The translations under genes were made by a program, and so were the position numbers. This document shows, piece after piece, positions 6,329 to 61,029 of a stretch of DNA of 61,029 nt. Source of the DNA: Deltaproteobacteria bacterium. Its GTDB lineage: Bacteria > Myxococcota_A > UBA9042 > PHBI01. The notes under the pieces are model-generated. The model was given only the letters and a program-made list of their open reading frames with translations, was not told where the DNA came from and made no database searches. How positions within the stretch are numbered: the stretch's first letter is position 1; every line of letters begins with the position of its first letter. The stretch spans positions 1-61,029 of the forward strand of contig SBGO01000027.1 of the NCBI GenBank assembly GCA_006226565.1, given 5' to 3'.

Positions 6329-8338
6329 ATGAACGCGATCCCGATGCGCCTCTCCGCCCTGCTGGCCCTCCTGTCGCTCGCCGCGTGCGCGTCCACGCCG
6401 CCGCCGGTGGCGCCGCCGCCCGAGCCGGAGCCCCCCGCGCGGCCGGTCGACCCCAGCGACCCGCCCGAGCGCGACTTCGCCGTCGTGGATGACGGCACGG
6501 TGCGGCTCGAGGCGACCCCCGAGATCCCGGCCGAGGTCCGAGACCGCCTGCGCCAATACCTCAACACGCGCAGCGCGAGCCTCGCCGACGTGGCGCCCGA
6601 CGGGCAGAGCCTGCTGGTGCTCACGCGCTTCGGGGAGACCCGCCAGCTGCACCACGTCGCGAGCATGATGGGGGCGCGGACCCAGCTCACCTTCGGGGAC
6701 GAGCCGGTGGGCGGGGCGAGCTTCTATCCGAACGACCCGGACGCCGTCCTGGTGAAGGCCGACGTGGGCGGCAACGAGCAGCACCAGCTGAGCCGGCTCG
6801 ACCTGAAGACCGGGCGGACGACGCGCCTCACCGACGGCAAGAGCCGCAACCAGACGCCGGTCTGGTCGCGCGCGGGCGACCGCCTGGCGTGGGCCAGCAC
6901 GGCACGCAACGGCAAGGATTTCGACATCTGGGTCGGCGACGGCGTCCACCCCGAGAGCGCGAAGCTCGTCCACGAGGTCTCCGGGCTCTGGTACCCGCTG
7001 GACTGGGCGCCGGGGGACAAGCGGCTGCTCATCGGCCACTACGTGTCGATCAACGAGTCGGAGCTCTTCGTCCTCGACCTCGAGGGCGGCGCGCTGACGC
7101 GGCTCAGCCCCGAGGCGCCGAAGGCGTCCTACCAGTCGGCGGCCTTCGGGCGCGGCGGGGCGACCGTCTACGCGACCAGCGATCGGGACGGCGAGTTCGT
7201 CGTGCTCTACGAGGTCGACGTCGCGAGCGGCGCGTGGAAGCCGCTGACCCAGCACATCCCGTGGGACGTCTCCGAGGTCGCCGTGTCCCCCGACGGTCGC
7301 ACGGTGGCCCTCGTCACCAACGAGGACGGCTTCTCGCAGCTGCGCCTCCTCGACGCCCGGTCGCGCAAGCTGCGCATCGTCGAGGGGATCCCGCGCGGCG
7401 TGATCAGCGGCCTGACCTTCGCGCGGCGCGACGACGTGCTGGCGTTCACGGCGGGCACGCCGACCTCGACCGGCGACGCGTACACGCTGAAGCTCCGGGG
7501 GAACAAGCTGGGCCGGTGGACGGCGAGCGAGATGGGCGGCCTCGACGCCGCGGGCCTGGTCGAGCCGTCGCTCGTGCGCTTCCCGACCTTCGATGACCAC
7601 GACATCCCGGCGATCTACTACCGGCCGAAGGGGGAGGGGCCGTTCCCGGTGCTGGTGAACATCCACGGGGGGCCGGAGTCGCAGGCGCGCCCCTTCTTCA
7701 GCGCCTTGACCCAGTACCTCGTGTCGGAGCGCGGGATCGCCGTGCTCTACCCGAACGTCCGCGGGTCGAACGGCTACGGCAAGAGCTACCTCCTGCTCGA
7801 TAACGGCCGGAAGCGCGAGGACTCGGTCAAGGACATCGGGGCGCTCCTCGACTGGATCGCGGCGCAGCCCGAGCTCGACGCCGGCCGCGTCGGCGTCATG
7901 GGGGGCTCCTACGGCGGCTACATGGTGCTCGCCTCGCTCGTCCACTACGCCGACCGCCTCAAGGCGGGCCTCGACGTGGTGGGGATCTCGAGCTTCGTCA
8001 CCTTCCTCGAGAACACCAGCGCCTACCGCCAGGACCTCCGGCGGGCGGAGTACGGTGACGAGCGGGACCCCGAGATGCGCGCCTTCCTCCAGGACATCTC
8101 GCCGCTGAACCGGGTCGACGCCGTCAAGAGCGCGCTCTTCGTCGCCCAGGGGGCCAACGATCCGCGCGTGCCCGAGGGGGAGGGGCGGCAGATCGTCGAC
8201 GCCGTGCGGGCGACCGGCGCCGACGTCTGGTACATGCTGGCGCGCAACGAGGGGCACGGCTTCGCCAAGAAGGTGAACCGGGACACGCTCTACCTGCTGG
8301 CGGCGCTCTTCTTCGAGAAGCACCTGCTCGGGCCCTGA
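6329..8338 (+). CDS. S9 family peptidase (prolyl oligopeptidase-like), lipoprotein
   Basis: LAAC lipobox, beta-propeller region, IHGGPE, GGSYGG nucleophile, GANDPRV Asp, EGHGF His. Confidence 0.93.
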   Translation: MNAIPMRLSALLALLSLAACASTPPPVAPPPEPEPPARPVDPSDPPERDFAVVDDGTVRLEATPEIPAEVRDRLRQYLNTRSASLADVAPDGQSLLVLTRFGETRQLHHVASMMGARTQLTFGDEPVGGASFYPNDPDAVLVKADVGGNEQHQLSRLDLKTGRTTRLTDGKSRNQTPVWSRAGDRLAWASTARNGKDFDIWVGDGVHPESAKLVHEVSGLWYPLDWAPGDKRLLIGHYVSINESELFVLDLEGGALTRLSPEAPKASYQSAAFGRGGATVYATSDRDGEFVVLYEVDVASGAWKPLTQHIPWDVSEVAVSPDGRTVALVTNEDGFSQLRLLDARSRKLRIVEGIPRGVISGLTFARRDDVLAFTAGTPTSTGDAYTLKLRGNKLGRWTASEMGGLDAAGLVEPSLVRFPTFDDHDIPAIYYRPKGEGPFPVLVNIHGGPESQARPFFSALTQYLVSERGIAVLYPNVRGSNGYGKSYLLLDNGRKREDSVKDIGALLDWIAAQPELDAGRVGVMGGSYGGYMVLASLVHYADRLKAGLDVVGISSFVTFLENTSAYRQDLRRAEYGDERDPEMRAFLQDISPLNRVDAVKSALFVAQGANDPRVPEGEGRQIVDAVRATGADVWYMLARNEGHGFAKKVNRDTLYLLAALFFEKHLLGP

Positions 8339-41800: not shown

Positions 41801-41871
41801 CGTCTGGGGCCCGGGGCCGCGCTAGCCCCAATGCCGGTCACCTAGGGATAACCCTATGAGATCGAACACAT

Positions 41872-41984
41872 CTTTTCACCACGGAGGCCACGGAGGGCAC
41901 GGAGGATGTGGGGCTGCTCGAGCCGAAACTCCGAGCGCGACCCGCTCCCCCCTCCGTGATCTCCGTGCTCTCCGTGGTGAAAAG
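41872..41984. repeat. 113-bp palindromic repeat with perfect 15-bp terminal inverted repeats (copy B)
   Basis: CTTTTCACCACGGAG ... CTCCGTGGTGAAAAG; three 9-bp units per arm; homologous to 8394..8500; between convergent genes. Confidence 0.85.
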
Positions 41985-42029
41985 CCGTGCCGTTTCATCG
42001 CCCTGCGGCCTATCTGATCGGCATTGCCG

Positions 42030-47435: not shown

Positions 47436-47508
47436 CCGGCCCGCGCGGGGTGTCGCGTCGGGGCGGTCCGAGGTATTTTCGAACCGACCCCGACAAGCCG
47501 TCTCTGGA

Positions 47509-47538
47509 GGGAGCCCCCCGCGTGGGCGGGGGGCTCCC
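47509..47538. other. Perfect 13-bp GC-rich hairpin between co-directional genes
   Basis: GGGAGCCCCCCGC-GTGG-GCGGGGGGCTCCC, 22 nt before ATG 47561; no U-tract. Confidence 0.6.
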
Positions 47539-47560
47539 ATCCCCCACCGGAGGACACCCC

Positions 47561-48262
47561 ATGCTACGCCGAAAGCTGCACCTCTTCGCCATCGCCCTGT
47601 TCGGTCTCGCCGCCTGCGCGACCACGGCCCCGCCCGCGGCCCTGGCGCCCCCGACCCCGCCTCCGCCGCCGGGGCCGAGCGACGACGGCATCGACGAGCC
47701 GGAAAGCGGCTATTGGGAGCGCACGGGCCCCGGGCTCTGGCTCTACGACCTCGGCGCCGGCTTCCCGGCCAGCCTCCAGCTCGGCGTGAACGACGTCGGC
47801 GGGCGCGGGATCCTGCGCGTCGCGCTCCCGCCGGGCGCCACCCAGGCGACCGTGACCGCGCTCGCCGTCGGCTACACCCGGGACGCCACCGAGGACGGGA
47901 GCGCCGACCCGAGCGCGAGCGGCGAGGCGACCTGGACCTTCTACGCCGACGACCACGGTGCGCCCGGCGCCGAGCTGGGGCACGTCGACGTGACGGTGGA
48001 CGCGGCCACGGTCCCCCCGCTCGACGAGGGCGGCGAGCCCATGAGCCACGTCGTTCCGGGGATCGAGGTCGGGCCGGTCTTCTGGCTGGCCTTCACCGTG
48101 CGCTCGGGGCAGCCGCGCGTCGGCGGGATGTACGTCAACCGTGGGCCCGAGGACATCGAGTTCCGCGACCTCTTCTACCAGCCGACGCGGACGTCGCCGC
48201 TCGACAACCCGGTGAACGCCCGGCCCTACGTGGCGCTGACCTTCGCGGGCCTGGGGCGCTGA
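47561..48262 (+). CDS. Hypothetical lipoprotein with Pro-rich linker and beta-sandwich domain
   Basis: GGAGG RBS; LAAC lipobox; PPTPPPPPG linker; beta-rich body (WTFYADDHGAPG). Confidence 0.7.
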   Translation: MLRRKLHLFAIALFGLAACATTAPPAALAPPTPPPPPGPSDDGIDEPESGYWERTGPGLWLYDLGAGFPASLQLGVNDVGGRGILRVALPPGATQATVTALAVGYTRDATEDGSADPSASGEATWTFYADDHGAPGAELGHVDVTVDAATVPPLDEGGEPMSHVVPGIEVGPVFWLAFTVRSGQPRVGGMYVNRGPEDIEFRDLFYQPTRTSPLDNPVNARPYVALTFAGLGR

Positions 48263-48319
48263 CGGACGGCTTACGATCCCGCGAGGTTGCACGTGCCAAG
48301 CGGGGGTGGCGGGTGTAGG

Positions 48320-48748
48320 ATGCGCGCGATGGAAAAGCACCACCCCACCCTCCTCCGGGTGATGACGCCGTTCCCACAGTGCATCGCGCCGAGCGCGTCC
48401 CTCGACGAGGCGGCGGCGGTGATGGAGCAGCATCAGATCCACCATCTCCCGGTGCGCGAGGACGACGCCCTCGTCGGGATGCTGACCGAGCGGGACCTGG
48501 TCACGGCGCGCCTCGCGGCCCGCAGCCACGAGGAGCGGGTCACCGTCGGCGAGGTGTGCCGCCGCGACGTCCACGTCGTCGACGTCACCCACTCCCTCGC
48601 CGCGACCGTGCGGGAGATGGCCCAGCACCACGCCGGCTACGTGCTCGTCAAGCGCGACGAGCACCTCGCCGGCATCGTGACCACCACCGACCTGTGCGCG
48701 CTGCTCGCCGAGATCCTCGACCCGGACATCGACGACATCATCGCCTGA
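48320..48748 (+). CDS. CBS domain-containing protein
   Basis: VMTP.P, IHHLPV...LVGMLTERDL, GYVLV...LAGIVTTTDL. Confidence 0.88.
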   Translation: MRAMEKHHPTLLRVMTPFPQCIAPSASLDEAAAVMEQHQIHHLPVREDDALVGMLTERDLVTARLAARSHEERVTVGEVCRRDVHVVDVTHSLAATVREMAQHHAGYVLVKRDEHLAGIVTTTDLCALLAEILDPDIDDIIA

Positions 48749-48751
48749 GCC

Positions 48752-48791
48752 AGAAGCGCGAAGCTCCCCTCCGGGCGGGCCGGAGGAGAGC
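48752..48791 (-). terminator. Terminator-like hairpin oriented on the minus strand
   Basis: 12-bp stem fully paired only on the minus strand (one G-U), followed by TTCGCGCTTCT. Confidence 0.55.
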
Positions 48792-48854
48792 TGGGTAGAA
48801 GGTGGGTCCGAGGGGCGGCACTGCGTGGGGTTCGGTCACACCGCCTGGGGATAC

Positions 48855-49013
48855 GGGGGCGTCCAGCGCCAAGCAAACTGCCTGGCCGGCGGATGCGACC
48901 CGCTGGGCGGCCCGACGGAAGCTTGAAAGACGTCCGGTCTGTCTGCGCTTCCGTCGAACCACCGAGCAGGCCGCCTCCTTGGCCATTCAGCTCGCTTGTC
49001 ACTGGCCGACCCC
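48855..49013 (-). ncRNA. Candidate structured non-coding element: ~160-nt rod-like hairpin
   Basis: Manual pairing: 58 of 65 aligned positions pair on the minus strand (50 Watson-Crick + 8 G-U, which would be A-C mismatches on plus); 24-nt apical loop 48923..48946; no family recognised. Confidence 0.6.
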
Positions 49014-49197
49014 TGGGCGGTTCGGCTGCGGATGTCGTCCTGGACCCTCGATCGCCCGCTGGGCGTCTCGCGGGGCATCGACCGGCGTCCGCCGCCGAAT
49101 CTTCACGCGGGGGGCGATTTTCTCCCCGCCAGGACCCGCCCGGGCGGCGCTCACCCGCGCGGGTCGCGGGCTTCGGCGATGTTGGGGACGCGATCCG

Positions 49198-51069
49198 TCA
49201 GCGGACCCAGATCCGTCCCCACTCGCCGAGCTGCGTGCCGAGGCCGACGGTCGAGTAGTCCTGGCCGCAGTGCGGCTCGGCGGTGCGGACGATGTAGCGG
49301 TTCACGCCGCCGCCGAAGCCGTGCCACTCGGCGTAGTTCTGGTAGTAGGTCAGGTTCGAGGGCTTGGCGACGTTGTCCGACGGGTCGTAGGTCTCCGTCA
49401 CCGACCCGCTGATGTCCTCGAGGTTGGTGTGGCCCGCGGTGGGCAGGGTGCGGAAGCGGTACACCGTGACGCCGTTGCTGGCGTGGCACTGGAGGCGCAT
49501 CGCCTGGTACGGCGGCACGTCGGTCTGCGTCCAGGGATAGACGAACGCGCCGAGCGTCGCGTACTGGGCCGGCACCGAGTAGCTCGGGTACCAGCCGCTC
49601 GCCATCAGGGTCCACCCGCCGCCGTCGGTCGTCATGTCGCAGTACACGTCGCGCGGCGGGTACGGGCCCGCGCCGTCGGTGTCGATGGTGTACACGCCGT
49701 CGCCGGTGAGGCCCTGGTACGCGTAGCTCGGCGCGGTCGGGTGGAGGTAGGCGTCGCAGCTCGGGGCGTAGGTGCCGTCGTACCAGCTCCGCCCGGTCCC
49801 GTTGGCCACGACACCGAACACGAAGGGCGCCGCCGGGATGCTCGGCCCGAAGTGGTAGGTGAAGCCCTCTTCGGCGCCGCCGGTGGCCGTGTAGACGGTC
49901 GTCACGGCGGCCGTCGCGCTCCCGAACGTGAGCTTCTCGGAGCCGCAGGTCCCGAGGTCGGCGTCCCAGCGCACCACCGGGTAGACCGCCCCGGCGGCGA
50001 TCTGGCCGCCGTCGACGTTGTCGCTGGTGTTGGCCGAGTCGTCGGCGGTGGCGCGCGTCCGGAGCCGGCAGCTCCCGATGTCGCCGGTCACGCCGAGCGC
50101 CACGTTCCAGTACACCTTCTGGGCGTCGACGCCGCCGCTGGTCAGCTGCTCCTCGCCGCGGAAGACGGCCACCTGGTAGAGGTAGGTGTCGGCGTCGACG
50201 GCGTTGACCCCGACGGCCGCGCAGCCCGTGACCGCGCCCGCCGGGCAGAGGTTGCCGGGCCCGCCGGCCGGGTCGAGGGTCAGGTCGGCCGCGAAGTCGA
50301 CCCCGCTGTTCGGGGCGGTGCAGTCGAGCTCGAGCGCGTCCATGTAGAGCTCGGTGACGACGTCGGCGGCCGTCCCCGCGGTGCACGCGAAGCCGAGCAC
50401 CAGCGTCCGGGCGCGGGCGCCGGTGGCGTCGAAGAGCAGCTTGATGTCCTCGGCCGGCGTGCAGCCGTTGGCGTCGGCGTCGTCGCAGCAGTCGAGCTTG
50501 GCCGAGCAGTAGATGTCGTCGAAGTTGAGCGCGATGTCGAAGAAGCCCTGCTGGGCGGGGCGCATCAGCGTCACGTCGAACTGCACGGCGGCGTCGACGT
50601 TGGGCGCGCAGGTCACGACCTGCGTGAGCGGCCCGGTCACGGGCACGGTCGGGTTCTGGAAGTCGACCGCCGTCCCGGTCACCGCCCCCGCCCCGGTCGC
50701 GGCGCCCGAGGCGAAGGTGCCGGCGTCCGCCGCGAGGATGTCGCCGTCGTACACGCCGACCACCCAGACCTTCACCGTGTTCTCGCTCACCGCCGGGTCG
50801 GCGTCGCACGGGCCGACGTAGCTCGCCGAGCCCGCGCTGTCGCCGTGGGTGCTCGAGGTGACGCGCCGCTGCCACACGACCGCGCCGTCGCCGTTGTCGA
50901 CCTCGAGGTCCCAGACGACGTCGCCCACCCCCACGAGGTTCAGGGCCGCGACGTCGATCTGCACGCCGGGGCCGTCGAAGCCTCGGCCGGAGACCGGCGC
51001 GTCGCCTTCCGCAGCGCACGCCCAGAGACCTGCACACAGGGCGAGCGCGACCAGAGCACGCGATTGCAT
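49198..51069 (-). CDS. Modular lipoprotein, paralog 2: conserved Cys-rich N-domain + one fibrinogen-like (YCDMTTDGGGWTL) domain
   Basis: ATG 51069 with GAGGT RBS; LWAC lipobox; GDSAGSASYVGPCDA, QQGFFDIALNFDDIYCSAKLDC; ends GRIWVR. Confidence 0.85.
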   Translation of the reverse strand: MQSRALVALALCAGLWACAAEGDAPVSGRGFDGPGVQIDVAALNLVGVGDVVWDLEVDNGDGAVVWQRRVTSSTHGDSAGSASYVGPCDADPAVSENTVKVWVVGVYDGDILAADAGTFASGAATGAGAVTGTAVDFQNPTVPVTGPLTQVVTCAPNVDAAVQFDVTLMRPAQQGFFDIALNFDDIYCSAKLDCCDDADANGCTPAEDIKLLFDATGARARTLVLGFACTAGTAADVVTELYMDALELDCTAPNSGVDFAADLTLDPAGGPGNLCPAGAVTGCAAVGVNAVDADTYLYQVAVFRGEEQLTSGGVDAQKVYWNVALGVTGDIGSCRLRTRATADDSANTSDNVDGGQIAAGAVYPVVRWDADLGTCGSEKLTFGSATAAVTTVYTATGGAEEGFTYHFGPSIPAAPFVFGVVANGTGRSWYDGTYAPSCDAYLHPTAPSYAYQGLTGDGVYTIDTDGAGPYPPRDVYCDMTTDGGGWTLMASGWYPSYSVPAQYATLGAFVYPWTQTDVPPYQAMRLQCHASNGVTVYRFRTLPTAGHTNLEDISGSVTETYDPSDNVAKPSNLTYYQNYAEWHGFGGGVNRYIVRTAEPHCGQDYSTVGLGTQLGEWGRIWVR

Positions 51070-51284
51070 GATCAGACCTCGTGGGGGGACGGGAGCAGCT
51101 GTCTGGAGTGGATGGTGGCTACCGCGGCCCGGCATCACCTTGCGGAAAACGCTAGCATCTTCGGTGCTGCGGAGGAAGTGTGCGCCGCACACGCGTGCAA
51201 CGCGCGCCGCGACGAGGGCCCGCCGCGAGTCGACGGGACCGAGGTGCATGCGGCGGGTTTCGGCGGTATCGTCCGCGGGACGCC

Positions 51285-53537
51285 ATGCCCGCCAAGCCCC
51301 CAGCCGACGCGAACCCCTACCCCCACGCCCGCGGGGATGGCTCGGCCTATGACCGCTACCTGGCCGGGATGGACGCGTCGATGCGGCAGAAGGTGGCGCT
51401 GACGGTCGCGCACCTCCTCGGCGTGGGCGATCTCGCCGACATGGGGATGGGCTCCGGGACGGGCAGCTTCGCGCTGGCCTCGCTCTACCCGGGGCTCTCG
51501 GTGGTCGGCGTCGACGTCGACCCCGGGATGGTCTCCCGCGCGGCCGAGCGCTACGTCCTGCCGAACCTCCGCTTCATCGTCGGCGACATCGCCGAGCCCT
51601 GCTTCCCCGCCGGCTCGGTCGAGGCCATCCTCGACTCCTCGGTCCTCCACCACGTCACGACCTTCAGCGGCTACGATCGCGCCGCCGCCGTGCGGGCGCT
51701 GGCCGTTCAGGCCGATCAGCTCGCGGATCACGGCGTCCTCGTCGTGCGCGACTTCCTCGACCCCGGGCCGGGGCGGGTCTGGCTCGACCTCCCCGGCGAC
51801 GACGGCGACGGCTCGGACGACCCGCGCCGCTGCTCCACCGCCGCTCTCTTCGAGCGCTTCGCCGGCGAGTTCCGGGCCGCCCGCGAGCCCGCCGCCCGCG
51901 GCTTCGCGATGGCGCCGGTCGCCCCGGGCGCCGACGACCCGCCGCTGCCCGCCGGCTGGCGCCGCTACGCCTGCGAGCGCGTCCACGCCGTCGAGTTCGT
52001 GCTGCGCAAGGACTACCGTCACGACTGGGAGCTGGAGGTCCTCGAGGAGTACACCTACCTGACCCAGCCGCAGTTCGAGACGACCTTCGCGGCGCTGGGC
52101 CTCCGGGTCCTCGCCTCGACCCCCATCCGCAACCCGTGGATCGTCCAGCACCGCTTCGCCGGTCGCTTCGTCCTGCGCGACGAGGGCGAGCATGCGCCGC
52201 TGGACTGGCCCGCGACCAACTACGTCATCGTCGGGCAGCGGGTCGGGCCGACGCGCGGCGTGGGGTTTCGCGAGGAGCCCACCGCCGAGGCCCCCCGGGA
52301 CCTCGCGCTGAGCCACTGGCGCCGGCTCGACAGCGGCGTGGTCTACGACGTCGTCCGCCGCCCCGGGCGCACCGTGGACGTCGTGCCGTGGTTCGTCGCC
52401 GACGGCGCCCTCTACGTGCTCGCGCGCCTCGGTCACCCGCGCCCCATCCTGGCGAGCGCGCGCGCGGCCGGCGGGACCCTCGACGGCAGCGCCCCCGTCA
52501 CCTGGGTGCACGAGGCGCTGACCGTGCGCCAGACCGACAAGCCCCTGGGCCAGACCGTCGAGGAGCGGCTCACCGCGCTCGCCGGCCTCGGCCCCGACGC
52601 GCTCCTCCGCTTCGACCGGGGCCCGGTCTACTACCCCTCGCCCGGCGGCGTGCAGGAGGAGGTCCGCGCGGTCTTCGTCGAGGTCGCGCCCACCGCCGTC
52701 GCCGCCGCCGAGCCGGGCCCGAGCGGGCTGAGCGACGCCGGCCCGCTCCGCGCCATCGAGGTCCGCCAGGTGCTGCGCGCCGCCCAGGTGGGCGGCCTCC
52801 CCGACGCACGGCTCGAGCTCAACGTCTACGCCATCCTGCTCAAAGGCGGGCGCGACGTCGGCGCCTGGATCGGGGCCGAGATCGACGTCCCCGAGGCCGC
52901 GCCCCCCGCCGACCGGACCACGATGGCCGCGCTGGCCGAGCGTCCGCGTCGGCGCCGCTTCCGTTCCGCGCCGGCCGAGGCGTCGAGCGGCTTCCTCTCG
53001 GTCACCCGCGCGCGCTTCGTCGAGCAGGCCGCGGACGGCGCCGCCGTGGGCGAGCGCACCCTCGAGTACGTGCTCCCGACGCGCTTCTCCGCGGTCACCG
53101 TGACGGTGGCGTGCCTGCGCCGCGCGGAGGGGCAGGTCTGGCTCGGGCTCGACGACGACGACCTGCCGGCGTCGCAGTGCTTCGACGGCCACAGCGAGCT
53201 GCTCGTGACCCCCGCCTGGCGCCTCCCGCGCGCGGTGGTCGGCCCCCGGGCGGCCGAGGCCTTCGTCCGGGCGCGGCTCGCGGCCGAGTACGGCGTCAGG
53301 GGGGGGCCCCTGACCGAGCTCGGCGGGCGCTACCATCCCTCGCCGGCCGTCACGCCGGAGGTGGTCCACCCCTTCGCCCTCGCGGTCACCGCCGAGACGC
53401 CGGCGGCGCGCGCGCTCCGCTGGGTGCGGCTCGAGGACGCCGTGACCCAGCGCGACCGGCTCGTCGACGGCCACCTCCGGGTGGTCGCCCTCCGCGCCGC
53501 CCACGCGCTCGGCCTCCTCGCCTCGGCGCCCGCGTAG
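51285..53537 (+). CDS. Class I SAM-dependent methyltransferase fused to two degenerate Nudix-like domains
   Basis: ADMGMGSG, VVGVDVD, FIVGD, SSVLHHV; later YYPSPGGVQEEV and YHPSPAVTPEVVH NudF-like segments lacking a canonical Nudix box. Confidence 0.7.
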   Translation: MPAKPPADANPYPHARGDGSAYDRYLAGMDASMRQKVALTVAHLLGVGDLADMGMGSGTGSFALASLYPGLSVVGVDVDPGMVSRAAERYVLPNLRFIVGDIAEPCFPAGSVEAILDSSVLHHVTTFSGYDRAAAVRALAVQADQLADHGVLVVRDFLDPGPGRVWLDLPGDDGDGSDDPRRCSTAALFERFAGEFRAAREPAARGFAMAPVAPGADDPPLPAGWRRYACERVHAVEFVLRKDYRHDWELEVLEEYTYLTQPQFETTFAALGLRVLASTPIRNPWIVQHRFAGRFVLRDEGEHAPLDWPATNYVIVGQRVGPTRGVGFREEPTAEAPRDLALSHWRRLDSGVVYDVVRRPGRTVDVVPWFVADGALYVLARLGHPRPILASARAAGGTLDGSAPVTWVHEALTVRQTDKPLGQTVEERLTALAGLGPDALLRFDRGPVYYPSPGGVQEEVRAVFVEVAPTAVAAAEPGPSGLSDAGPLRAIEVRQVLRAAQVGGLPDARLELNVYAILLKGGRDVGAWIGAEIDVPEAAPPADRTTMAALAERPRRRRFRSAPAEASSGFLSVTRARFVEQAADGAAVGERTLEYVLPTRFSAVTVTVACLRRAEGQVWLGLDDDDLPASQCFDGHSELLVTPAWRLPRAVVGPRAAEAFVRARLAAEYGVRGGPLTELGGRYHPSPAVTPEVVHPFALAVTAETPAARALRWVRLEDAVTQRDRLVDGHLRVVALRAAHALGLLASAPA

Positions 53538-53651: not shown

Positions 53652-55559
53652 ATGCATCTGCGACCGCATACGGCCCTGGTGGCCCTCGCTCTATTCGCGG
53701 GACCCGGTGCCTGCCTCGACCACGCCGCCGGCCCGCCGGGGCACGGCGCGCGGGTCGCGGTCGACGTCGCTGCGCTCGATCTCCAGGGCGTGGGAGACGT
53801 GGTCTGGGACGTCGAGGTGGTCAACGGCGCCGCCACGCCGGAGGTGGTCTGGCAGCGGCGGCTGACGTCGTCCGGATACGGCGACGGGGCGGGCTCGGCG
53901 AGCTACGTCGGGCCGTGCGACGCCGACGCGGCCGACAACACCGTTCGCGTCTGGGTCGTCGGCATCTACTCCGCCGCGGTGAGCGACGCCGGCGCGTTCG
54001 CCGCGGGCTCGGACACCGGGCTCGGCGCCGTCGTCGGCGATCCGCTCGCCTTCCAGAACCCGACCGCCAGCGGCCCGCTCGAGCGCACGATCACCTGCCG
54101 GGCCGACGCCGACACCGAGGTGCAGCTCGACGTCTCGCTCCTGCGCCCGGCGCAGCAGGGCTTCTTCGACATCACCGTGAGCTTCGGAGACGTCTTCTGC
54201 TCCGCCAAGCTCGACTGTGAGGACGACGCGGGGGGCGACCTCGAGCTCCTCCACAACCTCGACACCGGGACCCGTGAGATGACCGCGGTCCTGGGCTTCG
54301 CCTGCACGAGCGACGTCGCCGGCCCGACCTACCTCTACATGGACGACGCCCGCATCGACTGCACGGGCTTCCCCACCGCGCCGATCCTCGTCGACGCGGC
54401 GTCGAGCGGCCGCGTGGATCTCGCCGGCCCGTTCAGCGCCAACGCCGACGGCTACCTCTTCGCCGCGGCGGTGTATCGCGGCGTCGAGCAGCTGGGCTCC
54501 AAGGCGTACTGGAACCTGAGCCTCGGGCTCGACCAGACGCGCTTCGCCGCCGCCGGCGACTGCGTCTTCACCACCCGCGCCACGGTCGTGTCCGCGCCGC
54601 TCGACGTCGGCCCGGCGGGGTTCGAGCTGCCGGCGGACCAGGTCTACCCCGTCATCGACTGGGTCGTGCCCCTGTCCGACGCCGGCGGCCGCGTCTGCAC
54701 CCGCCACCAGGTCGACCAGCCCGACAGCGGCGTCTACACGACCTACGTCGGCTACCTCAGCGCGCCGAACCAGTTCACCTGGGCCGCCGCGCCCGTCGCC
54801 TTCCCCATCCAGTTCGACCGCTCGGGCCCGTCGACGGCCCGCGCGTGCGTCCCCGAGTGCAGCCACGGCGGCGTCTGCGCCGATGGCCTCTGCGAGTGCC
54901 CCTCGGGCTGGGAGGGCCCGGCCTGCGAGACCCAGGTCATCCTCGCCTCCTGCGAGGACTACCGCGGGACCCCGCACGACGTCGGGGACGGCGACTACCT
55001 CGTCGATCCCGACGGCGACGCCGGCGCGGACCCGCCGTTCACCGTGTACTGCGTCATGTCGACCGTGCCGGCGGGCGACTTCCTGACGCTCCCGACCCAG
55101 GGCAGCAACAAGAACTTCAGCCGCCGCGACGGGGCCGCCTCGCCCACGGGCTGCGGCACGGTCAGCGGCGGCGACCCAGGCGGCGCCTACAGCTACTACG
55201 AGAAGCTCCGCATCAACCCCGCGACCCGCGTCATCACGACCTCCGACCGGACCTTCGCGACCCAGATCGGCCAGGTGAGGTTCAAGCTGTGCGCCACCGG
55301 CGCGCTGTCGTGGAACACCTGGCTCAACTACGGCGTCGCCTGGGACAGCTACGACAGCGGCTCCCACCGGGGCACCGCGAACATCGACCTGACCGGGACC
55401 CCGTTCATCGTCTCGACGGCGTCGACCTTCATCAACAGCGGCTACCTCCCCGCCGGCACGACCTCGATCTCCGGCGACCGCAAGATCGTCAACCTGACCG
55501 GCGGCGGCCACAGCGGGCAGAGATACGCGAGCTACCTCAAGCTCGACTTCGCGCCCTGA
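53652..55559 (+). CDS. Modular exported protein, paralog 3: conserved Cys-rich N-domain + EGF-like + GON-like domain
   Basis: GPGAC lipobox-like; GDGAGSASYVGPCDA, QQGFFDITVSFGDVFCSAKLDC; CSHGGVCADGLCECPSGWEGPAC; KLRINPAT..DRTFA..ANIDLTGTPF..VNLTGGG. Confidence 0.82.
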   Translation: MHLRPHTALVALALFAGPGACLDHAAGPPGHGARVAVDVAALDLQGVGDVVWDVEVVNGAATPEVVWQRRLTSSGYGDGAGSASYVGPCDADAADNTVRVWVVGIYSAAVSDAGAFAAGSDTGLGAVVGDPLAFQNPTASGPLERTITCRADADTEVQLDVSLLRPAQQGFFDITVSFGDVFCSAKLDCEDDAGGDLELLHNLDTGTREMTAVLGFACTSDVAGPTYLYMDDARIDCTGFPTAPILVDAASSGRVDLAGPFSANADGYLFAAAVYRGVEQLGSKAYWNLSLGLDQTRFAAAGDCVFTTRATVVSAPLDVGPAGFELPADQVYPVIDWVVPLSDAGGRVCTRHQVDQPDSGVYTTYVGYLSAPNQFTWAAAPVAFPIQFDRSGPSTARACVPECSHGGVCADGLCECPSGWEGPACETQVILASCEDYRGTPHDVGDGDYLVDPDGDAGADPPFTVYCVMSTVPAGDFLTLPTQGSNKNFSRRDGAASPTGCGTVSGGDPGGAYSYYEKLRINPATRVITTSDRTFATQIGQVRFKLCATGALSWNTWLNYGVAWDSYDSGSHRGTANIDLTGTPFIVSTASTFINSGYLPAGTTSISGDRKIVNLTGGGHSGQRYASYLKLDFAP

Positions 55560-60650: not shown

Positions 60651-61029
60651 TCAGGCGTCGACGGCGGCGTCCACCGCGGCGTCGATGGCCGCCAGCACGT
60701 CTTCGCGGTGGTCGCGCCAGAGCCCCGGGGTGACCCGCAGGAGCGACCACCCGAGGCGCTGCCAGAAGAGGGGGACGTAGAGGTCGCGCGTGAGCGGATC
60801 GGCCTCGCGCAGGAACGCGCTGCAGTCGACGCCGACGCGGAAGGTGCGGTCCTCGTGGGTCGCCACGGCGAGGTCGAGGGAGAGCCGGCCGAGGCCGACG
60901 TCGCGCTTGAGGCGGTAGCCCCGGGCGGTGAGCTCGCGGGCGAGCGCGTCGCGCACCTTCAGGCCGGTGCGGTCGGTCCCGAGGAGCTGCCCGCCGCGCG
61001 CCGCCGTCACCCCGCGCCCACCGCCGAGC
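60651..61029 (-). CDS. C-terminal fragment of a larger protein: Vsr/DUF559-like restriction-endonuclease-fold domain
   Basis: Open frame runs off the window edge; GYRL.RDVG.G.L.LDLAV....GVDC......RD......LGW.LLRV....W pattern, typical of the tail of large SF1 helicase/AAA proteins. Confidence 0.65.
   Translation of the reverse strand, partial: LGGGRGVTAARGGQLLGTDRTGLKVRDALARELTARGYRLKRDVGLGRLSLDLAVATHEDRTFRVGVDCSAFLREADPLTRDLYVPLFWQRLGWSLLRVTPGLWRDHREDVLAAIDAAVDAAVDA

Follow-up and report, generated by a model that had tools for sequence, protein, structure and literature searches.

The long palindromic rod between two convergent genes of an uncultured myxococcotal chromosome, previously taken for a single orphan structure, is composed of two hairpins, one within the other: an inner 159-nt rod (I) occupies the apical loop of a hairpin of ~90 nt (O) that related lineages carry without it. 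On balance, the rod is probably an ERIC/MITE-like palindromic element nested, in inverted orientation, in a lineage-specific small RNA. Neither the O nor the I family is present in Rfam, and both non-coding families, from an uncultured lineage of Myxococcota and hitherto uncatalogued, are described here for the first time: O is an expressed hairpin of ~90 nt with a near-invariant 20-nt motif, and I a low-copy palindromic element with defined termini. An "orphan" structured RNA can prove to be a composite of two unrelated hairpins, and opposed G-U strand biases inside one rod are a usable marker of such nesting. As they are, the findings add modestly to what has been catalogued of palindromic repeats and candidate small RNAs in bacteria.

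The window (the whole stretch of DNA that was analysed, 61,029 nt, 72% GC) was placed by its protein relatives, which include "Deltaproteobacteria bacterium HGW-Deltaproteobacteria-14", in an uncultured member of the Myxococcota, PHBI01 lineage. Its Pfam-matched major open reading frames (ORFs) are ordinary chromosomal genes (rho, release factor, ruvB, pfk, secDF, PPDK and others), and a Pfam scan of ~35 major ORFs, several of them matchless, gave no reverse transcriptase (RT), transposase or integrase domain. The source sample, run X1, is a freshwater-sediment metagenome in which every sampled word of the searched stretch occurs and one 8.5-kb contig spans the locus at a depth of 36.6 (all depths cited are assembler word depths). 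O and I are contained in a 449-nt spacer with convergent genes on either side, and the features of the locus, together with a short copy of I found at a related locus, are the following:

48287-48748, plus strand: CBS-domain gene, left of the spacer.
48762-48792, no strand assigned: H1, a 13-bp GC-rich hairpin located 14 nt past the CBS stop, from folds and from conservation in L006, L010 and L017.
48804-48854, plus strand: 5' half of O (basal stem GGGUCC, stem P2, conserved bulge and left apical loop), from the syntenic alignment.
48825-48844, plus strand: O motif GTGGGGTTCGGTCACACCGC, mostly unpaired or bulged, near-invariant across O variants.
48806-49048, no strand assigned: stretch found as RNA in two metatranscriptomes (X2 and X4 contigs).
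48855-49013, minus strand: I, a 159-nt palindromic rod with termini GGGGGCGTCCAG...CTGGCCGACCCC, from the fold, the G-U count and its absence from orthologous O loops.
48882-48986, minus strand: the 105 apical nt that make up the conserved core of the I family, matched by X5, X6 and X9 contigs.
49014-49047, plus strand: 3' half of O (right apical loop, stem P2 and the basal strand GGACCC), from alignment with L006 and L010.
49049-49106, no strand assigned: conserved tail right of O with blocks GGGGCATCGACCG and GAATCTTCAC, aligned to L006, L010, L017 and the loose ends of X3 and X5 contigs.
49107-49129, minus strand: hairpin GCGGGGGGCGATTTTCTCCCCGC, likely the terminator of the inserted fibrinogen-like gene, as read from the sequence.
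49198-51249, minus strand: gene for a secreted fibrinogen-C-like protein, right of the spacer.
L010, 1827-1876: mini-copy of I, 50 nt with perfect 10-bp termini, right after the U-rich tail of the PPDK terminator.

Syntenic loci (designated L), obtained by means of a DNA pattern of O and of orthologues of the neighbouring GTPase gene, give the ancestral gene order as SpoU methylase, PI-PLC, GTPase, CBS, spacer and methyltransferase. Homology between the window and L006 ends at 49106 and restarts at 51305, which indicates that the fibrinogen-like gene and its terminator were inserted separately, downstream of O and before the methyltransferase gene. The conserved tail at 49049-49106 may represent a promoter or else the 3' portion of the RNA. 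Other rearrangements are found near the locus: paralogous genes are inserted at different points in the window and in L011, with a third point suggested by the flank of an X5 contig, and in L029/L030 the methyltransferase gene is inverted and abuts the CBS gene.

On the minus strand, I (boundaries accurate to about +/-3 nt) folds into a single continuous rod with small internal loops and 64 pairs, 56 Watson-Crick and 8 G-U, essentially the same as the original prediction of 50 Watson-Crick pairs, 8 G-U pairs and 7 mismatches over 65 positions. All eight G-U pairs turn into A-C mismatches on the plus strand (8/8), as expected from the claim that wobble pairs are limited to the minus strand. The folding energy of the rod as RNA is -115.7 kcal/mol on the minus strand (z = -9.2) and -88.8 kcal/mol on the plus strand (z = -5.3); as DNA, the values are -57.6 (z = -6.2) and -44.4 kcal/mol (z = -3.5), respectively. 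The rod is the longest inverted repeat of the window, within which BLAST and motif searches found no second copy. The two ends of its conserved core, 48882 and 48986, pair with each other. Positions 48918 and 49003 differ between the window and the X2/X4 variants, and pairing is retained on the minus strand only, a hint of continuing selection on the minus-strand hairpin at this site; the X2 variant of the rod thus has 10 G-U pairs on the minus strand versus 8 in the window.

The outer hairpin has the opposite polarity. O, downstream of the CBS gene, is built from 48804-48854 and 49014-49047, with a basal stem GGGUCC/GGACCC and an apical stem ACCGCC/GGCGGU that closes a variable loop. Its outer stem, in which 48804-48825 pairs with 49027-49047, had been described as having G-U pairs that favour the plus strand, and this was confirmed; once the rod is removed in silico, O has 8 G-U pairs on plus versus 1 on minus, and folds at -49.3 versus -28.6 kcal/mol. 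All eight O variants (8/8) fold better on the plus strand (-40 to -54 kcal/mol, versus -28 to -48 on minus) and contain 4-8 G-U pairs on plus and 1-2 on minus. Four lineages share this plus bias at one locus, which makes selection on a plus-strand RNA its best interpretation. The plus strand of O is also the direction of the upstream CBS gene. The sequence of stem P2 differs among the window, L010 and L011 types and pairs in each of them. The bulge motif (GTGGGGTTCGGTCACACCGC; also given as GUGGGGUUCGGUCACACCGC and GCGUGGGGUUCGGUCACACCGC) is near-invariant, the exceptions being one substitution in the second unit of L011 and a 1-nt shift in L006; its inner 15-mer GGGTTCGGTCACACC is found in all O-bearing loci. 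The motif is unique in the window at <=3 mismatches, with 0 matches expected by chance.

H1, the other hairpin of the spacer, shows three compensatory pair changes between the window and L006. One C-A mismatch on its plus strand is a G-U pair on the minus strand in four lineages. The 13-bp stem is perfect on minus only, and conserved pyrimidine-rich tails follow both O and H1 on that strand. The original prediction of a minus-strand terminator-like hairpin was right about its place, 63 nt from the rod, but the canonical U-tract is absent. Consensus scans of 48500-49400 found no intrinsic terminator on either strand, and a sigma-70 consensus scan found no promoter near O and I.

The comparison with relatives separates the two hairpins. 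The order GTPase-CBS-[O]-methyltransferase is kept, and O is rod-free in L006/L018/L019, L010 and L017, in which the spacer holds H1 and O with a short loop; L011-L013 contain two tandem H1+O units. At the syntenic site, identity over the 5' half of O is 86.5% for L006 and 84% for L010/L017. The loop was also found empty in Logan DNA contigs of X3 (soil), X5 and X6, in which 48851/48852 is joined straight to 49017/49022, with 165-169 nt skipped and AAA or CTGGCGG (3-7 nt) in their place; these contigs have zero mismatches to the 3' half of O over 49017/49022-49048. Overall, the window, X2 and X4 carry the rod at this site, and L006, L010, L017, X3 and X5 have an empty site. Since orthologous O hairpins lack the rod, I is an insertion in the apical loop of O, and its junctions can be read by setting GGGGAUAC-I-UGGGCGG of the window against GGGGAUACUAGCGG of L010, the loop being closed by ACCGCC/GGCGGU.

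The O of X3 has no listed difference from the window over 48788-48852 and a mismatch-free piece at 49022-49049, while lacking the rod, which points to a recent insertion. The X2-X9 variants are known from difference tables and 30-nt loose ends of Logan contigs, tables that leave differences close to the ends of aligned pieces unlisted, and the contigs may be chimeric. By parsimony, the rod was inserted once and recently, in the lineage to which the window, X2 and X4 belong. O is itself sporadic, being absent from HGW-14 (114-nt spacer), from the more distant L020/L021 and from L029/L030; we regard it as a narrowly distributed candidate for a new small RNA.

Opposite signs within 250 nt cannot be explained by a mutational strand bias, whose effect on neighboring sequences would be the same, and nesting of I in O is the simplest account of the opposite G-U biases. 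The history that we propose would start with O as a resident downstream of the CBS-domain gene in an uncultured Myxococcota clade (PHBI01 lineage), its bias presumably reflecting a plus-strand RNA structure maintained at the locus in several lineages. A full-length copy of I, a small non-coding foldback element with termini GGGGNC(N)GTCC...GGAC(N)GNCCCC, would have entered the apical loop of this older ~90-nt hairpin in inverted orientation, carrying in a family "sense" that would hence read on the minus strand at this site. The composite is transcribed and found as a discrete and very stable RNA of ~245-250 nt with one end at 48806. We infer that I is mobile and that the rod is a passenger in this RNA, not a functional part of it.

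Sequences homologous to I occur elsewhere without O. Contigs of X5, X6 and X9 match 48882-48986 alone, at 85-90% identity, within unrelated flanks of lower GC content. At least 7 core-matching unitigs were found in X5, 5 in X6 and 1 in X9. The summed depth of such unitigs is up to 93, versus 12.7-13.7 for contigs that look single-copy. Among the X5 unitigs, one of 36 nt has a depth of 53 and one of 93 nt a depth of 20; in the same sample, a 4.8-kb contig with a copy of I and a 2.8-kb contig with O only have depths of 12.7 and 13.7, respectively. Several I variants are therefore present in sample X5, be it in one genome or in several, and X6 likewise contains more than one variant at a summed depth well beyond that of single-copy sequence. 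The flanks of I-only contigs keep GGGSC(N)GTCCA...TGRACNGNCCC, and the anatomy of the family can be summarized as the termini given above, variable sub-terminal segments and the 105-nt core; the terminal motif recurs in the copy of the window, in the variants of X6 and X9 and in the 50-nt copy of L010. Read from the flanks, the wobble pairs in the basal stem of an I-only variant fall on the strand equivalent to the minus strand of the window. This agreement is consistent with a family "sense" and points to selection on an RNA hairpin in the history of I.

The mini-copy in L010 is polymorphic: it is missing at the same site in L017 (96% identical over 7.4 kb), L007 and L009. Over its right half, it matches the right end of an I-only variant at 76% identity, the flanking TA included, and none of 500 shuffles (0/500) reached the score of its alignment to the I of the window. 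Taken together, termini shared by copies of differing length, polymorphism between near-identical genomes and location at gene-end hairpins amount to ERIC/MITE-type behavior. The original prediction had named many dispersed genomic copies as the sign of a MITE; cores in other contexts and a polymorphic mini-copy agree with this, but the source sample X1 contains just one sequence >=80% like I or O.

Some observations run against the MITE reading. The best-conserved part of I is the mid-arms and not just the termini; MITEs seldom show this pattern, which suggests that the I hairpin itself has a function. The single X1 copy means that the element is not high-copy there, and a clear target duplication and a transposase partner are both wanting: no exact target-site duplication was seen, each end of the three copies whose flanks could be read being bordered by a loose T(A/G/T) dinucleotide, and no transposase partner of I was identified. 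Across ~276 kb of related loci, one mini-copy was found. In GTDB species genomes, a 21-mer from the I core gave 3 matches, all of them chance 21-26-mers; a two-block I pattern had zero matches in JGI metagenomes, blastn against plasmids and phages also gave zero matches, and scans of viral contigs yielded chance matches or zero. The wider distribution of I is accordingly that seen through difference tables of Logan contigs. A scan with a 22-mer pattern of O retrieved one syntenic contig, L006.

O and I together were found as RNA in two independent metatranscriptomes. The contig from X2, a sediment metatranscriptome, is 267 nt long and consists of a 16-nt Illumina P5 adapter tail, 48806-49048 and 9 nt; the contig from X4, a soil metatranscriptome, is 175 nt long and has the same start, 48806. 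Each matches the window at ~96% identity. Within 10 kb around the locus, the only other matches in the X2 and X4 runs are short distant pieces of conserved genes; since the flanking genes are uncovered, O+I is a discrete RNA, more abundant or more stable than the neighboring mRNAs. The X2 contig runs uninterrupted across both junctions of I. Position 48806, 2 nt inside the basal stem of O and shared by the two contigs, is a real RNA end. The first option of the original prediction, a novel minus-strand small RNA or a divergent 6S-like RNA, is thus borne out in part: an RNA over the structure exists, but contigs do not tell its strand.

The RNA matches no known family. For the window, Rfam gave nothing at the gathering threshold and only chance microRNA-type matches at E<=10, and for the I-free loci of relatives, the O family was likewise unmatched, with only chance miRNA/snoRNA-type matches; ARAGORN detected no tRNA or tmRNA, in agreement with the expected lack of known-RNA signatures. 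A coding role for the rod was rejected, as its six-frame peptides had 0 matches among 5.8 billion proteins. A minus-strand ORF does open with an ATG at 48986, the exact edge of the core, and 9/15 variable sites fall at its third codon position, but the permutation P value is 0.055 for the single frame and 0.27 over six, an antisense frame scores equally and the frames past the core differ between variants. The boundaries of the core block are explained by the symmetry of the hairpin (48882+48986 = 48855+49013). The termini of the rod start with GGGGTC, like Tn3-family repeats; Tn3-type inverted repeats were rejected because there is neither a 5-bp duplication nor an inner TAAG motif.

Among the alternatives to a nested mobile element, the least unlikely, though clearly less probable than nesting, is that O and I form one functional small RNA in which the rod is a lineage-specific expansion domain and the cores found elsewhere are domains of related RNA genes. 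The rod might then act as a dsRNA-like decoy, a protein sponge or a stabilizing extension. A discrete and abundant RNA ending at the base of the composite rod in both metatranscriptomes would be expected of such a molecule, as would mid-arms conserved at 85-90% while the basal and apical parts vary, the two changes that retain minus-strand pairing here and the single copy in the source sample. However, O occurs rod-free in five lineages, near-identical relatives included, and I-like cores exist outside O. The L010 mini-copy retains the termini and not the core, which fits a mobile element rather than an RNA domain, and the strand signatures of the rod and of O are opposed.

As to the transcribed strand of O+I, we consider plus and minus at roughly even odds. 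No raw-read RNA run with the O+I sequence was found, and the RNA is known from strandless contigs. The plus strand is indicated by the structural bias of O in four lineages, by the direction of the CBS gene and by the position of H1 outside the stable RNA. The minus strand is indicated by the G-U pairs of the rod, with the two extra ones of the X2 variant (48918 and 49003), by the extra G-U pair of H1 and by the pyrimidine-rich tails after O and H1. The P5/read-1 adapter beside 48806 would mark the 3' end of a minus-strand RNA, provided that the X2 library is dUTP-stranded.

A functional minus-strand transcript, either a small RNA starting from 49049-49106 or read-through from the fibrinogen-like gene, with the rod as a 3' stabilizer or terminator and O and H1 as tandem terminators, seems improbable to us. 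It would make sense of the 8 (10 in X2) minus-strand G-U pairs of the rod, of the perfect minus-strand stem of H1, of the pyrimidine-rich tails and, under the library condition just given, of the adapter at 48806. Yet the helices of O contain 4-8 A-C mismatches on the minus strand in every lineage, the consensus scans gave no promoter or terminator, and the RNA ends 14 nt short of H1, which places this hairpin outside the stable species.

A bolder version of the mobile-element reading, to which we give still somewhat less credence, would make the I family a mobile hairpin under selection as RNA, with a homing preference for single-stranded loops and terminator-proximal sites of transcribed structured elements. 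I would then be an "intervening sequence" class outside rRNA, possibly moving via an RNA or single-strand intermediate, and its insertion here would have made a new chimeric abundant small RNA whose halves come from opposite-sense histories. A related idea is that O, with termini GGGTCC...GGACCC, belongs to the same superfamily as I, in which case the locus would be a nest of such elements. If it is true that I targets RNA loops and terminators, it would provide a tractable system for the spread of rRNA-type intervening sequences.

That the hairpin acts as DNA, as a cruciform or fold-back serving as a strand-specific recombination or replication site (attC-like, or a single-strand origin), is very unlikely. 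The DNA fold is itself strand-biased (the -57.6 versus -44.4 kcal/mol and z of -6.2 given above), and the locus is a rearrangement hot spot, with insertions at different points and the methyltransferase inversion of L029, but G-T wobbles contribute little stability in DNA, integrase, relaxase and Rep genes are absent from the window, attC core sites are absent and an RNA exactly spanning the structure was seen. A divergent 6S-like RNA that sequesters RNA polymerase, the other half of the first option of the original prediction, has an even slighter chance: a rod-like RNA of ~250 nt with paired ends, abundant in metatranscriptomes, does recall 6S RNA, but the Rfam 6S models had no match in the window or in the I-free loci, even at E<=10, there is no central open-promoter-like bubble with conserved flanks, relatives carry the 90-nt outer hairpin alone or nothing, and the element is missing in the close relatives HGW-14 and L029. 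The least probable of all, and effectively refuted, is the second option of that prediction, a retron msr-msd cassette with its RT encoded elsewhere. The opposed biases of outer stem and rod do resemble a1/a2 pairing around an msDNA hairpin, and the rod is similar in size to Mx162. However, known retron RTs adjoin the msd and, as had already been noted, there is no RT domain in the major ORFs of the 61-kb window; the "msr", already suspected to be short, is just 29 nt; and Rfam msr models were unmatched at both the gathering threshold and E<=10. The outer stem and the rod are not conserved together either: the supposed a1/a2 stem is an independent hairpin in five lineages and is conserved without any msd (L006, L010, L017, L011, X3 and X5), and rod copies exist without the outer stem.

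The nested mobile element that we favor can be compared with several known systems. It shares with retrons of the Mx162 type a similar hairpin size and an outer stem enclosing an oppositely biased inner hairpin, but has no RT and no msr match, and each of its hairpins occurs without the other. The intervening sequences (IVS) of 23S rRNA are extended stem-loops in the apical loop of a structured-RNA helix (PMC4990558, PMC2672173). I resembles them in this position, in its patchy occurrence among close relatives and in being transcribed together with its host RNA; it differs in having a host other than rRNA and in lacking an S23p-type ORF, and the RNA contig runs on across both junctions.

Co-transcribed MITEs such as the Correia elements of Neisseria, bcr1 of Bacillus and the pneumococcal RUP and BOX elements form stable RNA hairpins that can be substrates of RNase III. 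Their target duplications, of TA or other sequence, are clear, their copies number from tens to hundreds, and IS partners are known or suspected for them, whereas no such feature could be shown for I; the likeness is in the small size, the terminal inverted repeats, the lack of ORFs, the insertion polymorphism and the transcription into stable hairpins. The ERIC/IRU elements, 127-bp imperfect palindromes of enterobacteria, have no sequence similarity to I. The host of I is an uncultured member of the Myxococcota with 72% GC, the source sample contains a single copy, this copy lies within the loop of a second structured RNA element, and conservation is higher in the mid-arms than over most of the element. 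In behavior, the rod nevertheless comes closest to ERIC/IRU and other co-transcribed palindromic repeats, and the features that it shares with ERIC/IRU are many: an imperfect palindrome of 100-160 nt takes up the entire element, which is non-coding and located in transcribed intergenic regions by gene ends, its presence at the same site varies among close relatives, shorter internally deleted forms exist, its copy number seems low to moderate with no known transposase, and the RNA hairpin shows signs of having been selected in one orientation.

The CBS/methyltransferase locus, which in the window carries the ~90-nt outer hairpin O downstream of the CBS gene, has undergone repeated rearrangement inside one lineage. 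In two relatives whose GTPase falls in the 90%-identity cluster of the window GTPase, the methyltransferase gene lies in reversed orientation, with its start 6 nt past CBS, and O is not present at this locus.

L029, 8585-10859: inverted methyltransferase gene next to CBS
L030, 6895-9067: inverted methyltransferase gene next to CBS

Around O, the window also holds two genes with secreted or lipoprotein-like products, both members of one large paralogous family (proteins P0001-P0120).

Window, 49198-51249, minus strand: paralogous-family gene
Window, 53652-55559, plus strand: paralogous-family gene

The N-terminal ~400 aa are conserved in the family, while the C-terminal domains are swapped (fibrinogen_C, FGE-sulfatase, EGF/teneurin, COLFI, GON, and others); 236 matches were found at E<=1e-10, many of them contributed by a single MAG. 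Members near O vary in insertion position and orientation between the window and the syntenic locus L011, and the flank of a contig from X5, a public run read as DNA contigs, suggests a member at a third position.

The interval between the GTPase and CBS genes is variable as well, being empty in L006, L010, and HGW-14 and occupied by called genes of 218 to 230 aa in L011 and L029; the window ORF at this position had no Pfam match. A second ORF lies at the window edge, with a match to the REase_MTES_1575 domain (E = 1e-10).

Window, 47450-48262, plus strand: 270-aa ORF
Window, 60651-61028, minus strand: partial ORF

The unit formed by O and the neighboring hairpin H1 is duplicated in tandem in three syntenic loci, and one spacer, from HGW-14, is without O.

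L011, 4620-4890 (likewise L012 and L013): tandem duplication of the H1+O unit
L007 (HGW-14), 7858-7973: spacer without O, with two copies of the direct repeat CCAATAGGGGTCA

Both L011 copies retain the invariant motif, while their loops and stems diverge. The HGW-14 spacer shares with L010 the proximal motif GTATCGTCTCGCG(C/T)CATGG, a candidate promoter that may drive a leaderless methyltransferase mRNA. In the RNA contig from the sediment metatranscriptome X2, TTCAACGCC directly follows the last base of O (compare window 49049); relative to this contig it lies ~70 nt further downstream in L010, and its window counterpart, TCTTCACGC, ~50 nt further downstream. Either a deletion in the genome of that organism or a joint at the RNA level could explain the junction.

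A second long hairpin separates the PPDK gene from the next, convergent gene.

Window, 41867-41989: 123-nt hairpin

Its arms, 85% complementary, are made up of CACGGAGG repeats. The matching site in L010 holds a 50-nt mini copy of I, the rod hairpin inserted in the apical loop of O, and the same site in L029 holds a GC-rich tandem array of ~280 nt (GCGTGG..., period 6 or 24). Hairpins and repeats seem to accumulate in the gene-end spacers of this lineage.
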